Assembly: GCA_034521595.1 (NCBI GenBank)
Contig: JAXHMG010000003.1
Span: forward strand, 512,001 to 576,000
Direction of reading: 5' to 3'
DNA length: 64,000 nt
From: Gemmatimonadota bacterium
GTDB taxonomy: Bacteria > Gemmatimonadota > Gemmatimonadetes > Longimicrobiales > Gaopeijiaceae
Shown here in pieces: positions 30,001 through 44,241 of this stretch. Position numbers: made by a program. Positions within the stretch are counted from its first letter, which is position 1. Every line of letters begins with the position of its first letter.

Positions 30001-33000
30001 GTCCCTTCGCCGGCGGGGAGAGCGAGGGCCGTTCGCACGGTTTCGATCGCCTGAGCGCGGCTCACGGCACGCATCGAGTCGACCTCGTGCTGCCGTCGGC
30101 TCACGTTTTCCGCAAGGAGCGCGAAGCCCATCTCCCGATCGGATCGGTCGGAGCCGCCGAGCCGCCGCTCCAGCTCGTTCCCGACATTGCGGAGGGGCAC
30201 GACCTGTCGGTCGAAGTAGACGCGTTGGAAGCCGCCCGCCCGCTCCTCTCGAACCTCGTGCACGACCCCGTCGTACAGGGTGAGAAAGAGGTCGGTGCGG
30301 GCCTCGTTGAACGCCATCTGGCCGCTGGCCGCGTAGGTGGTGCGCTGTCCGCCGCCGTCGTTCCCGTCGAAGATGGCCACGTCTTCCAGCGTGTTCGTTG
30401 CCGGATCGATCCGCGCCGCGGTGAGGAAGTAGCTTTCCGAGCCACCGTCAGTGCGGATCTCGTTGATCACCTGTTCCTCGAGCTCGAGTGTCGGGCTCTT
30501 GCGACCGATGTCGAGCAGCAGGTTCTTTAGCGCATGGTTCGACTCCGGAAGTACCTGATCGTTGAAGTAAAGCATCACCCCGGTGCCCAGGATGCCCATG
30601 ACGAGCAGAGGGCCCAGGATGCGGGTGGGGCGGATGCCTCCGGCCGAGAGCGCCGTGATCTCGTTGGCGGCCGTCATCTCGCTGAACGCGTAGAGGACGG
30701 CGACGAGCACCGACATGGGAAGCGAGAGCGCGATGGTGTGCGGGAGGGAGAGAACCAGGAACTCCAGGATGACCTCGAGTGGAAGCCCTTTGCCCACGAG
30801 GTCGTTGACCCGCTGCGCCACGGCGTTCAGAAAGATCATGCCCGTGATCGTGCACAAGGCGAAGAGGAACGGACCCACGTGAATCCGGACCAGGTATCGG
30901 GTGAGCACGCTCGGGCGCATGGTTGCGTCGGGGGATCCCGCTGCGGTGTGTTGGGTGTCGGCCGTGTTGGGTCGGGTCGGTACACCGCCCCGTGCCCGTC
31001 GGTTCAACGCGCCCGTCGATTCGTGTGAATCCGAGAGTCGCCCTGCTCGCGCTCAGCGCGACTGTCGCGGTCGTCGGCGGACCGGCGGTGGGAGGCGCCC
31101 GCGTGGCCGGCGTCGCTCCCGTCGGCATCGGCATGCCCTCCGACACGATTCTCCGTCGCGACCTGGACCGTCCTGCGGCCACCGTGCGGAGCGGCTTGGT
31201 GGCGCGCGAGGACGAGCCCCACGTGCGGCTGGGCCTTCGGAGGATTCCGGTTTCGCCGTCCGGCGTGGGATCGAGGGCCGAGCCCTTCCGTCCGGAGCGT
31301 TCGGTGGTGGTCCGGGGGCGGTTGGTGCCGGGGGGCTACGGGGTCGCCGCCACCGACTCCGTCGACGCGTTCGTCGGCGAAGCGCTACGACGGTGGGGAA
31401 GGGGACTCGGCGTTCCGTCGCCGGACACGAGCAGGTTCCTGCCGAGAGTCCAGCCACGAGAGACCGAACCCGTCCCGGCGGGTGACGAAGCACGCTTCGT
31501 CACCGAGTTCGCCGACATGGCGATGCGGGTCAGGAGCAGGATGGAGCTCGGGGGAGACTGGGCGCGATTCGAACCCTGCGACGCCCGTTTCAAGGAGAGC
31601 TGCACCCCGACGCTCGTCCCGCAGCTCAGCCCGGATTTCCTGTTCGGAGTGCAGCTCGACGGGACGATCGCGGAGCGGATCCGGGTGGACGTGGACTTCG
31701 ACCAGGCCCGTGAATTCGACGCCGCGAACCGCATCAACATCGCGTACGAGGGTGGGGAAGACGATATCCTGGAACGTCTCGACGTGGGGGACGTCACGTT
31801 CCGCCTTCCGCGTTCCCGGTTTCTCACCGAAGGGCTGCCCTCCGGCAACTTCGGATTCCAGGCCGAGGGGCAGCTCGGACCGGTGGACTTTCAGACGGTG
31901 TGGGCGCAGCAGCGTGGAGACCTGAACTCGCGGTCGTTCCGGCTCACGGGCGTCGGGGATCAGCGCGGCTTCGTGCAGGAAGACACGCTGGTGCTCGACG
32001 ATGCCGACTACGCCCAGGGGCAGTTCTTCTTCCTCTTCGACCCCGAGGGCTTGGAGCGCTTTCCGCATGTCGACGCCCTCTCGCTCGATCCGGCTTCCGC
32101 TCCTCCCGACGTGGCACCCGGCGACCAGCCCATCCAACTGTACCGATACGAGGACGACGCGGTGTTCCAACAGCAGGTGGAAGGATTCATCCGGGCGGAC
32201 GCGGTCGCCGGGACGGCTGCCGACACCGTGGTCGAGTCCGGTTGGTTCCGTCACATGCGGCCGGGCGTCGACTACTTCGTGCATCCGAGTGGACTTTGGG
32301 TGGCGCTTCGCACGCCGCTCCGTTCCGAAGAGATGCTCGCCGTCAGCTACATCACCGCGGTCGGAGACACGGTCGGTGATTACAACCCCGAGCGCCTCCA
32401 CAACCGGGGTGAGCGCCCCACGCTCCGACTCCTGAAGGCGAGCGGGGCCAACCACAGTCCCGGCCGTCCGACGTGGGACCTGGAGATGCATCAGGTCTAT
32501 CGGGTGTCGGGGTCCCCGGACGTGGAGGAAGCGTCGGTGGATCTCGACATCTCGCTCGGCGAGCGCGCTCAGGGGCGGACCTTCAAGCGGCGGCCTTCCG
32601 GGGAAAGCGTCACGTTTCTCCGCCTCTTTGGCCTCGACGAGGAATCTCCCCTGGACCGCATCGACGAGTCGTTCGTGTACGATCCGGGCGGTGGGCTGTT
32701 CGGAGACGCCCAACCCGTGGAGGGGACTTTCATCGTCTTCCCGACCCTCCGTCCCTTCGCCGAGCCGCCTCCCGTTCCTTCGCTGGGGCTGTCCGCGACG
32801 GAGAGCGCCGCGATCCTGGCGGACGACGCGAATCCGCGTATCTACGAGGACGAGGATCCGTTCGAGCGAGAGAACGCGGGGCGCTTTCGGCTGACCATCG
32901 CATACCGTCTGCAGTCGACCGGCGTGATCTCCTCGTTCTCCCTCGGTGCCTTCGGGATACGGGAAGGAAGCGAGCGGATCACCCTCGGAGACCGGGTGCT

Positions 33001-42000: not shown

Positions 42001-44241
42001 AAGTCGACGCGGCGGTCGACGCGCTACTTGCCGCGATGGAGCCGATCATGATCGTGGTGCTGGGCGTGGTCGTGGGTGGGATGATCGTGGCCATGTACCT
42101 GCCGATCTTCGACATGATCAACGCGGTGCAGTAGCTCGAGCGGCCCTGACTGGACGCCCGCAGTCGACCAATCGCGCATTCGGCTTCCAGGGCGTCGGGT
42201 TCCGTTCTAGCTTTCTCGCGTAGGATGGTTCGTCGAAACATGCCGACGCCCTCGAGACCCGAGTTCCTTCATCCCGGAATGGCCATGCCCACCCACCACT
42301 GTCCACGCGTGGCACGTCCTCCCCTGCATTTCGCCTGGATTCTCGCCGCGGTTCTCGTCTTCGCCGCCGCATGTGGCGGCGGTGCGGATACGCCGGCCGA
42401 GCGCGTGGCCGACCTGGGTGTGCAAAACGTCGCGGAGCCCGTGTCCGGTCTGATCACGGTCGCGCAGCCGAGCCGGGACCAGGTCGAGGAGCTCCTCGAC
42501 CTGGGATACGACCGCTTCATCAGCCTTCAGCTCACGGAAGAGCCGGGAACGGGCTGGGAGGAAGCCGCGATCCCGGCCGCGGGCGGCCATTTCGCCCGAA
42601 TCCCGGTTGCGGGCCCCGACGACCTCACCCGCGAGAACGTCGATGCTTTGGACGCGCTTCTCGCCGCTCGAGGAGAGGAGGAGACGGTGCTATACTGCGC
42701 GAGCAGCAATCGCGTGGGGGCGCTCCTCGCCTTGCGCGCGTTTTGGCTTCAGGGGGCGGACCCCGAAGAAGCCATGTCGTTGGGGCGTCGAGCCGGCATG
42801 AGAGCCCTGGAGCCCGCCGTGCGCGAGATCATGGCCCAGGGCGGCTAACGACGTCGCTGGTTCTGCGTGCGCTCGGCCCCCGGTCGCCGAGCGCGGATTC
42901 CGTCCACCTCCCGCGCTCATCACGGGCAGCGGTACACCATGGCGTTGACGTTCATGCCGGCGCCCACGGACGCGAAGACGAGCACGTCGCCGGAGTCGAT
43001 GGAGTAACCCTCGAGCTCACCGTGCCGTACGAGGTCGAACACGGTGGGAACCGTCGCCACGGAGCTGTTGCCCATCCACGAGATGGTCATCGGCATGGTG
43101 ATGTCCGACGTGCACTTGATACCGGACGTTCGAAGGAGTCGCTTGAGGATGGCTTGGTTCATCTTGGCGTTGGCCTGATGAGCGATCAGCATGTCCACGT
43201 CGTGCAACGTCAGGCCAATCTCCTGGAGCATCTCGCAGACGACGCCCGGGACCGTGTTGACTGCGTATTCATAGACTTTGCGGCCGTCCATCTTCAGATA
43301 GAAGCGGTCCGTTGGATCGTCGGGATGGTAAGAGGGCGCCATCCGCAACAGGTGGGCGTGCTCGACGGCGTCGGAGCGCGCGCGGTGGCCGAGAACCCCG
43401 ACCGGGGCCTCGGTCTCCACTGCCTCCAGGACGGCCGCACCGGCGCCGTCCGCGTACAGCATGCTGTCGCGATCGTGCGGGTCGATCACGCGGGATAGCG
43501 TCTCCGTCCCGACGACCAGCGCGCGGCGACCCTGACCGGCGCGCAGGAAACAGTCGGCCTGGACGACGGCCTGTAGCCACCCCGGGCATCCGAATGGGAG
43601 GTCGTACGCGATGCAAGCGGGGTTCCGGATGCCGAGCTCCTGTTTGATCCTCGCCGCCAGGGTCGGAACCGTGTCGATCCGCCCGGTTCGTGGGCAGACA
43701 TCACCGAAGTTGTGGGCCACGATGACGTAGTCCAACGTCTCGGGGTCGATGTCCGCATCGGCCACGGCCGCCCGCGAGGCCTCCGTGCCGAGGTCGGACG
43801 CGGAGAGGTGGTCCGGTGCCCACCGACGCTCGGCGATCTCCGTGATTTCGAGGAACTTCGCGATCAGTCGGGCGTTGTCCGCGGGATCCAGCGGCTGGCC
43901 ATCAGGGAGAAAGAACGTCCGATCCTGGAACTCCGCGTTTGTCACGCGGCGCTCGGGAAGGAAGCTACCGGAGCCGATGAATCGACAGGTGATGGGCTTG
44001 TTCACTAGAATGTCGGGTCAGGGGATGGAAGCTGCTCTTCGTGCGGGCGATTTCGTGGATATCATAAAGGAGCCTGCAAGTGGGCGCACTCGCTGCGGGA
44101 TTCGAAGGGTGCCGCCCGGCTGCTCGGCCACTGTTGGAAGAAATCGGCCCGTGGTCCGAACCGCGCAAGAAGGGGGCGGCCCGATCACCCACCGGAACCG
44201 CCCCCTTCTCCGCCCTTCCGTTCCGTTGTTCCCAGCTGCTA

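Follow-up and report, generated by a model that had tools for sequence, protein, structure and literature searches.

A type IX secretion translocon gene beside type IV pilus genes in a Gemmatimonadota bacterium, and a candidate minimal T9SS

The sprA locus and its distant partners

We analysed a 64,000-nucleotide stretch of a Gemmatimonadota genome of 93% completeness (assembly GCA_034521595.1, contig JAXHMG010000003.1, positions 512,001 to 576,000; hereafter the window), in which sprA stands first in a run with comEA, pilB, pilT and pilC. Further genes discussed here are found elsewhere on this contig, beyond the window, and are given in contig coordinates (C3).

28414..30920, minus strand: lptF and lptG, LPS export permeases (PF03739, gene calls), divergent from sprA
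31025..37159, plus strand: sprA, type IX secretion system (T9SS) outer-membrane translocon, 2044 aa (TIGR04189, PF14349)
37199..37882, plus strand: comEA-like gene, periplasmic DNA receptor (PF12836 twice, TIGR00426)
38001..39722, plus strand: pilB, extension ATPase of the type IVa pilus, carrying an MshEN domain (TIGR02538, 743 bits over 675), a neighbour
39771..40895, plus strand: pilT, retraction ATPase (TIGR01420, 503 over 319), a neighbour
40932..42134, plus strand: pilC, platform protein (PF00482 twice), a neighbour
C3:602050-603768, plus strand: pilQ, pilus secretin (PF00263, 150 bits; gene calls)
C3:1254204-1255064, minus strand: DUF5683-like gene, after porV1
C3:1255088-1256098, minus strand: porV1, PorV-family carrier (PF19572, NF033709, PDB match)
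C3:1416505-1416951, minus strand: gene for a signal peptide joined to a C-terminal sorting domain (CTD), 148 aa (TIGR04183)

SprA scores 463 bits against TIGR04189 in a profile search (cut-off 200), starts at a GTG codon with a signal-peptide-like N terminus, and covers 81–100% of each 200-column block of the profile; a 17-sequence SprA profile matches Flavobacterium johnsoniae SprA (6h3i_A) with E = 5e-143. The protein is about 360 residues shorter than its 2403-residue F. johnsoniae counterpart, and a single-sequence fold of 1000 of its residues has a pLDDT of 31 and is not used here. SprA is found in 97 of 121 phylum genomes and forms a single clade in a tree (support 0.998; read with the row for genome G057, a wrong reading frame, left out), and 24 of 106 genomes of the class Gemmatimonadetes, spread over five families, lack it. 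PorV1 barely passes the Pfam cut-off (PF19572, 29.7 bits over 27), exceeds that of the PorV/PorQ family (NF033709, 97.6 over 90) and, at 37.8 of 250, does not reach the strict cut-off of the PorV equivalog; its only significant PDB match in a profile search is PorV (6h3i_F, E = 1e-13). The translocon and carrier of a canonical T9SS are thus both in this genome, as an earlier note on this DNA had stated. The DUF5683-like gene beside porV1 is a candidate accessory part of the T9SS; its model has no Foldseek match at E ≤ 0.001, and the best fold-search match (Z 7.1) is to generic helical hairpins.

The 148-residue protein has the signal peptide and CTD of a canonical substrate and no passenger domain. 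It scores 24.8 bits against TIGR04183 when searched as protein (cut-off 23), with Pfam CTD matches sub-threshold, and Por_Secre_tail occurs on 49–58% of the members of its top Atlas clusters; the fold motifs are retained in the short CTD, as is, for the most part, the terminal Lys/Arg. We find it to be the sole clear CTD protein of this genome, again in agreement with the earlier note, with one weak extra candidate (C3:2687373-2688668, E = 2e-4 with a home-made profile). An all-against-all comparison of the C-terminal 110 residues of 689 signal-peptide-like proteins reveals no second sorting-tail family among the matches listed.

Cargo, sortase and motor

An orthologue of the short CTD protein occurs in 93 of 106 class genomes. 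It is not the only CTD protein of the class, as had been proposed, since a second cargo of about 1300 residues is present in 39 of the 106. The description of the system as stripped-down fits this genome and, on these searches, 42 of 82 SprA-positive class genomes, which have PorV1 and in which the large cargo was not found. Cargo-rich sister classes carry PorU and 24 to 43 or more CTD domains. No match to PorU/C25 (PF01364) is found in this genome, with a search that matched 51 of 51 genomes outside the class; strong C25 matches number 0 of 29 in the class (one weak match), 15 of 15 in other classes, where PorU had been credited to a single genome, and 36 of 36 in further genomes. One sister-class PorU scores 618 against NF033707 (cut-off 420), and all five loci of family f10 have the order era-porU-porV-k1, compared with era-porV-k1 here.

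The reported absence of GldL, GldM and GldN holds in so far as none is found in this genome; these Bacteroidota-built models had no positive control that rang, the 14 built-in controls being silent for all three. With that limit, GldM is not found in any of 80 genomes, including all 15 cargo-rich genomes of other classes, or in any of 81 genomes of a phylum sample centred on an 'Ignavibacteria'-titled locus; the SprA of that locus groups with Zixibacteria-titled loci in the tree, so the sample is no Bacteroidota control. Beyond the sister classes, SprA-bearing genomes with no GldM match number 42. GldN and GldL are each found in none of five genomes including this one, likewise with no positive control ringing. 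For GldK, no GldK-like FGE match at all is obtained in this genome, while FGE paralogues below the cut-off matched in two of five genomes and three controls. Neither GldK nor DUF6089 is matched in a Parabacteroides plasmid record with ruvA-sprA, and there is no gld locus among the matches listed for TonB-receptor, FGE and PorP queries. PorP/SprF (PF11751) is absent from this genome and matched in one of five genomes tested (G012). DUF6089, which we take to be PorG, is not found in this genome. The three ExbB genes here look like ordinary Tol, Ton and orphan copies; in one sister-class genome a type-B CTD cargo, a PorP/SprF barrel, ExbB and ExbD stand in a single run.

A GldLM-type motor with a GldKN-type track too distant for Bacteroidota models would explain these results, and the silent controls for GldM, GldN and GldL leave room for it; PorV barely passes Pfam here and in most class genomes escapes Pfam altogether, so divergence is large. 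We nevertheless consider such a motor unlikely, as SprA and PorU of the same genomes lie far above their cut-offs and this genome lacks any GldK-like FGE match. Moreover, a crude topology screen yields seven two-helix N-terminal proteins and no obvious GldL/GldM pair, and annotation of the gene clusters that recur around 20 porU loci and around 61 sprA loci shows no motor-like gene. Because these searches find no Gld motor in cargo-rich relatives either, its apparent absence is not a sign of repurposing. Nor would it belong to the stripping of this class, which lost PorU and nearly all cargo.

Gene neighbourhood and the pilus genes

The most constant neighbour of sprA is lptFG, upstream in 60 of 61 phylum loci and in 27 of 46 other-group loci with room. 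Downstream, where 52 loci offer 5 kb of room or more, comEA is found in 48. It was said to follow sprA directly in 53 of 61 loci, but no more than 16 of the 52 have it as their first marked gene; in 34 that place is taken by an M28 glutaminyl-cyclase gene. The same 52 loci have pilB in 37, pilT in 43 and pilC, within 9 kb, in 43. The ComEA-like protein here has a hydrophobic N-terminal stretch and two helix-hairpin-helix modules; we treat its gene as a neighbour of sprA, putative at most as a T9SS member.

Other groups of the FCB superphylum were scanned with a 6-sequence SprA alignment, the 17-sequence one being too diverse; the 73 loci obtained are biased towards sister-class relatives and include no Bacteroidota-type locus. 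Four comEA labels on proteins of 530–650 residues in these loci were taken as NusA (one checked) and dropped.

The most striking part of the earlier note was that the translocon had been repurposed and is possibly powered by, or linked to, the pilus, and PilB, PilT and PilC, perhaps with ComEA, could indeed energise or use SprA. The proximity of pilC in most phylum loci is consistent with this, as are the near-universal PilC/GspF-like gene (77 of 80 genomes searched), a sprA-pil link in 4 of 40 other FCB-group loci (TA06, Edwardsbacteria and two Fermentibacteria, by record title), and the short gaps of the run in this genome (36–118 nt), in which no terminator-like site is found; counts in a promoter/terminator scan are no higher than chance. 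The two sets of genes nonetheless come apart in both directions. Genome G057, a single contig of 100% completeness, has SprA, PorV and both CTD proteins, while PilB, PilT and PilC are not found; conversely, PilC is kept in 23 of 24 SprA-negative genomes, and in 14 of 20 SprA-negative loci sprA is cleanly excised, leaving lptF and the M28 gene on either side and the pil genes undisturbed. Beside sprA, pilB is absent from eight of nine own-family loci with room, and it is missing downstream in 36 of 40 loci of other groups, 16 of which have a rimP-nusA-infB run in its place. The pilus also has its own secretin, pilQ, in a full pilMNOPQ-like cluster, and with PilB, PilT, PilC and pilins (14 N-methyl motifs) this genome encodes a type IVa pilus whose downstream genes are ordinary members of pilus/ComEA DNA uptake, sprA being only a neighbour. 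The sprA-pil order predates the reduction, since PorU-bearing, cargo-rich relatives share it. We read lptGF<>sprA-(glutaminyl cyclase)-comEA-pilBTC as an old block of envelope genes and not an obligatory partnership; a pilus-powered translocon is unlikely, a shade more so than an overlooked motor, with facultative coupling or shared regulation as the most that might apply.

A putative minimal system and its implications

SprA tracks its carriers closely: a PorV-type module is present in 81 of 82 SprA-positive class genomes and 2 of 24 SprA-negative ones, and 25 of the 26 SprA-positive genomes without PorV1 have the large cargo module, with the limit that non-independence of kin genomes makes such counts overstated. 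From this match, SprA of the class probably still secretes. The short CTD protein is tied to SprA more loosely than had been claimed, persisting in 13 of 24 SprA-negative genomes, 11 of which also lack PorV1; it might serve in the periplasm or be undergoing slow loss. In family f4, short CTDs match the query less closely in genomes without PorV1 (median −log10 E 21.9, n = 28, versus 28.2, n = 23).

This persistence, together with the SprA losses in five families, would fit a decaying remnant in which PorU and cargo are gone, secretion has ended, and SprA and PorV are on the way out. We regard decay as improbable, given that SprA exceeds its family cut-off in 82 class genomes (families f1, f2 and f4–f9) with no stop inside any match listed, that SprA of this genome retains most of every profile block, and that SprA retention matches PorV modules almost exactly. 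No more probable is a non-secretory envelope role, such as lipid handling with LptFG or a gated pore plugged by the CTD protein, which the upstream lptFG and the passenger-less CTD would suit, but lptFG are divergently oriented, stay in place where sprA is deleted, and are not what SprA presence follows.

The reading we favour, and hold to be somewhat likelier true than false, is a vertically inherited, still working, minimal T9SS. The sequences show that SprA, PorV1, the DUF5683-like gene and one conserved CTD-only protein are left, that porU has gone from an era-porU-porV operon, and that cargo fell from dozens to one or two. The 148-residue protein would cross the inner membrane by Sec, its CTD would dock on PorV1 inside SprA, and the pair would leave through the SprA lateral gate. 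With no sortase, the CTD would not be cut off and could stay on PorV1 at the surface, itself the product, as a small module for display, adhesion or gate-keeping. This lineage probably never had the Gld motor: in sister classes and the other FCB-group genomes examined, a SprA-PorV-PorU system with many cargoes is as a rule Gld-less. In F. johnsoniae, release of the carrier from SprA needs energy (PMC10994853, in the text available), supplied in the current model by the GldLM motor and track; here another source, or none, would have to serve, and our guesses, in falling order, are an ExbB/ExbD/TonB-type proton-motive-force motor, spontaneous release and the pilus ATPases.

Compared with the Bacteroidota T9SS (F. 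johnsoniae SprA-PorV, PDB 6H3I/8GL6 series; P. gingivalis Sov/PorV/PorU), the system shares the translocon, a PorV-family carrier, a type-A-like CTD with terminal Lys and, in sister classes, the porU-porV order; it differs in its single CTD protein and in that GldK/L/M/N (Gld models without a positive control), PorU, PorP and DUF6089 are not found in this genome. One sentence in PMC11705866 gives Ignavibacterium and Melioribacter SprA, PorV and Plug only, a similar translocon and carrier without other T9SS proteins; it covers two genera, and the text available has neither a count of cargo nor a mechanism or broader range. Here the pattern extends to a different phylum and to about 40 more genomes, and the class has lost PorU and almost all cargo as well. 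T9SS has been proposed for Fibrobacter succinogenes and other FCB phyla, and Gemmatimonadetes are among those that 'may' have it (PMC6851124, PMC11285876, PMC5837995); CTD-like tails are common to those proposals and ours, and the text available of those papers leaves motor, gene order and a CTD-only substrate unaddressed.

More tentatively, at slightly under an even chance in our estimate, the SprA-PorV(-PorU)-CTD core may be older than the Bacteroidota gliding motor and work in many FCB-group lineages with a different energiser or none, the DUF5683-like helical-hairpin protein being an unrecognised subunit and this class the smallest form: pore, carrier, one partner and one CTD-only substrate. 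If so, it would contradict the 2025 proposal that T9SS originated within the gliding machine of Bacteroidota (PMC12635249, in the text available); with a translocon-carrier-sortase that has dozens of cargoes and no detected Gld proteins, phylum-wide and in many FCB-group genomes, the sequence of events would be turned round, and folded-protein export would have a second mode, driven differently or not at all. That relatives with dozens of cargoes also lack a detected motor suggests an older drive mode, independent of the neighbouring pilus genes. The reduced form would make the energy question directly testable: it comprises three or four genes, among them a candidate new subunit and a conserved substrate that is CTD only, and deletion mutants of it exist in nature.

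Components of the secretion system

The five genes sprA-comEA-pilB-pilT-pilC lie where the earlier note placed them, with lptF and lptG, divergent, just upstream of sprA. The only PDB match of a profile built from 17 relatives of this SprA is F. johnsoniae SprA (E 5e-143). The components found are as follows (C3 is the contig that holds the window).

Window 31025-37159: SprA, type IX secretion system (T9SS) translocon in the outer membrane, 463 bits on TIGR04189 (cut-off 200)
Window, 3' of sprA: genes for a ComEA-like protein, PilB, PilT and PilC
C3:1254204-1255064: k1, a DUF5683-like gene that adjoins porV1 in 25 of 30 loci
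C3:1255088-1256098: PorV-family carrier (PorV1), on the same contig, away from sprA
C3:1416505-1416951: 148-aa protein in which about 15 residues separate a signal peptide from a C-terminal sorting domain (CTD)

An iterated CTD profile (58 hits from CTD-bearing loci), run against 2942 crude gene calls of this genome, picks out the 148-aa protein (E 1e-53); its single other candidate, a weak one at E 2e-4, is a repeat protein of 431 aa, matched at its tail. This repeat protein (C3:2687373-2688668, minus strand) is secreted, ends in a weak FlgD/CTD-like domain and is a possible second substrate. PorV1 of 30 class genomes has an invariant CxGxC (alignment columns C159-G161-C163) with no counterpart at the aligned place in F. 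johnsoniae PorV. The GC content of pilB-pilT-pilC (window 38001-42134) is about 62%, versus about 66-68% in the flanks.

An animal-type glutaminyl cyclase (M28) lipoprotein gene stands between sprA and comEA at L096:7902-8837 (minus strand) and 33 other sprA loci, in most of the phylum as well as several other groups; bacterial glutaminyl cyclases are the nearest to its product (6qql, E 5e-62). In this genome Gln apparently stands first in the CTD protein and in many signal-peptide proteins, and a crude count of residues following A-x-A sites is enriched for it (Q 61, E 25, D 11). The 'Q-rule' of Bacteroidota may extend to Gemmatimonadota.

SprA, its carriers and the pilus genes

The phylum, taken to be Gemmatimonadota from the earlier note, Atlas taxa and record titles, was sampled with 121 genomes of 90% completeness or more, 106 from the class of the genome under study and 15 from other classes (families f10-f12). 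We find SprA in 97 of the 121; all 24 SprA-negatives fall within the class and were again negative with a second query that detected two known positives. These tallies take in G053 and G093, sampled genomes flagged unpublished, on neither of which any claim depends. In a FastTree tree of 53 sequences rooted on Parabacteroides (the row of genome G057 being invalid), the phylum's SprA proteins group as a single clade with support 0.998, which fits the expectation of vertical descent.

With cut-offs that we set ourselves and kin that are non-independent throughout, PorV1 (E<=1e-15) is present in 56 of 82 SprA-positive versus 2 of 24 SprA-negative class genomes, a second, large cargo (about 1300 aa; E<=1e-10) in 39 versus none, and either or both in 81 versus 2. 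SprA occurrence goes with carriers, not pili. The earlier note had proposed a translocon repurposed and possibly powered by, or linked to, the pilus/DNA-uptake machinery; such a link is made unlikely by the retention of PilC in 23 of the 24 SprA-negatives and by 14 of 20 fetched SprA-negative loci, where lptF directly adjoins the M28 gene, with the pil genes intact and sprA gone (of the other six, one has lptFG inverted, four have different upstream genes and one lies at a contig edge). Also against it is G057 (one contig, 100% complete), which has SprA (467 bits), PorV1, the short CTD protein and the large cargo, and in which a search for pilus motor genes gave no PilC and only partial PilB/PilT hits at E>=1e-10. 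The genome under study itself encodes the secretin PilQ and has 14 motifs of pilin type.

The association of sprA with pilus genes is probably inherited gene order. Our 61 sprA loci comprise the window and 60 chosen from 97 for family spread; lptFG is upstream in 60, and among the 52 that have 5 kb of room or more comEA follows in 48, pilT and pilC in 43 each and pilB in 37, the first gene being M28 in 34 and comEA in 16. Outside the phylum (63 loci, after 10 of 73 were dropped as belonging to it), the 40 with room have pilB downstream in 4 and an infB run in 16, and a Parabacteroides record has the order ruvA-sprA. The pil neighbourhood is present in all three loci with room from the cargo-rich families f11 and f12 and missing at many other loci, which argues for an old link, often broken.

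Six loci of the genome's own family (L064-L067, L069, L071) read comEA-pilT-pilC, pilB missing, and in the four of them tested the only PilB-like gene lies elsewhere, at 38-42% identity. PilC matches start at about residue 55 in these six loci, in G054, G078 and G096, and in several other-group genomes.

The large protein, judged from sequence, appears to be a cargo that has a PorV-type carrier of its own, in the order TonB-dependent receptor, cargo, PorV paralogue, GWxTD protein, lipoprotein-like protein. This module is seen at L232:3452-15131, L230, L231 and L233-L235, often 10-20 kb upstream of sprA; at L229 the cargo gene is apparently fragmented. That there is but one CTD protein, as claimed before, stands for this genome, which lacks the large cargo, and for about half of the SprA-positive class genomes; it fails for the class, 39 of whose 106 genomes carry the large cargo. 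Other-class genomes have from 24 to at least 43 CTD domains each. A contig of one class genome (L037; G119 contig C2), with two CTD hits of a style unlike the rest, looks like contamination.

PorU, the motor and k1

Of the 29 class genomes searched none has a strong match to C25/PorU, the sortase, and one has a hit at 4e-6, but all 15 other-class and all 36 further genomes are positive; one sister-class PorU that was checked scores 618 on NF033707 (cut-off 420). All 10 sister-class loci have porU immediately 5' of the PorV1 orthologue, with k1 after the latter, and the order era-porU-porV-k1 in family f10, compared with era-porV-k1 here, indicates that porU dropped out of the operon in the class.

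A search for GldM (TIGR03517, E<=0.01) gave no hit in any of 80 genomes, made up of 23 from the class, 15 from other classes and 42 further SprA-bearing ones labelled Eisenbacteria, Cloacimonadota, Zixiibacteriota, WOR-3, Fermentibacteria, Marinimicrobia and others. Another phylum sample likewise gave 0 of 81, GldN and GldL are each found in 0 of 5, and GldK has no match in the genome under study. As no positive control responded for GldM, GldN or GldL, this reads as not found with Bacteroidota models. With PorU and PorP not encountered and the motor not found with those models, the system is not a canonical T9SS by membership. In one sister-class genome without detected Gld, a single run (L342:1458-11953, minus strand) holds a type-B CTD cargo, a PorP/SprF-like barrel, ExbB, ExbD, a protein of unknown kind and a TPR lipoprotein, a hint of ExbBD-type power, but a PorP search responded in only one of five genomes and the three ExbB genes of the genome under study are unlinked to T9SS genes.

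From sequence we regard k1 as a candidate T9SS partner. Strong hits occur in 8 of 13 PorV1-positive genomes searched, in none of 22 genomes that lack SprA as well as PorV1 and in none of 25 SprA-positive genomes without PorV1, a co-occurrence that co-deletion of neighbours could explain in part. Distant copies, often tandem, are present in 19 of 20 other-group genomes and follow porU-porV in 4 of 10 other-group loci; many relatives bear DUF5683, a term indexed in two papers of the open literature, and the predicted structure, at pLDDT 88, is an extended hairpin of helices for which no clear structural counterpart emerged. Following porU-porV-k1 are an NHL-repeat protein and a protein of about 1100 aa (L324:13148-17340, plus strand; L321-L323, L325, L334, L337, L339), the latter lacking Pfam/NCBIfam hits, sharing a short motif with SprA, not found in the genome under study and possibly a further T9SS-linked barrel; a POTRA/Omp85 gene comes next in five sister-class loci. 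Outside the phylum, an M6-like metalloprotease CTD protein (NF052323, below cut-off) lies directly 3' of porU-porV at L333:219-3293 and L334:5122-8322.

Precedents and the role of the short CTD protein

In the available parts of the sources, T9SS is limited to Bacteroidetes, with Gemmatimonadetes not shown (PMC4793230), inferred to have arisen inside Bacteroidota gliding (PMC12635249), said to be possible in Chlorobi, Fibrobacteres and Ignavibacteriae, with glutaminyl cyclase also treated (PMC5837995), or described, for Gemmatimonadetes along with further FCB phyla, as one that 'may also be present' (PMC11285876); CTDs are reported in Fibrobacter (PMC6851124). One sentence already puts a motor-less state in print, Melioribacter and Ignavibacterium having PorV, SprA and Plug and no other T9SS protein (PMC11705866). 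The open literature yielded no study of a system of the present type, nor the breadth of the motor-less state, the PorU-less minimal form, a CTD-only substrate or k1; subscription papers or supplements may contain a wider survey.

Of the 106 class genomes 93 have the short CTD protein, almost without exception in single copy, at 36-66% identity among the near-full-length matches listed, and selB adjoins its gene in 26 of 30 loci. It retains the fold motifs, mostly ends in a terminal Lys or Arg and, judged by eye, differs from cargo CTDs by two insertions. Its persistence in 13 of the 24 SprA-negative genomes, once with an added C-terminal tail, counts against a purely secreted role; in family f4 it is less similar to the query where PorV1 is missing, which, though confounded by ancestry, counts for a tie to PorV1.

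Composition, co-loss and gene order are direct observations; for the export steps we draw on the F. johnsoniae translocon, where the CTD docks on PorV loops inside the SprA pore and leaves with PorV (PMC10994853). By analogy, the short CTD would bind PorV loops in the SprA pore and exit together with PorV, and without PorU it would remain attached to PorV1. The system most probably functions as the translocon-carrier half of a T9SS does, and, since the CTD would stay on PorV1 in the absence of PorU, the CTD itself would be the surface product.
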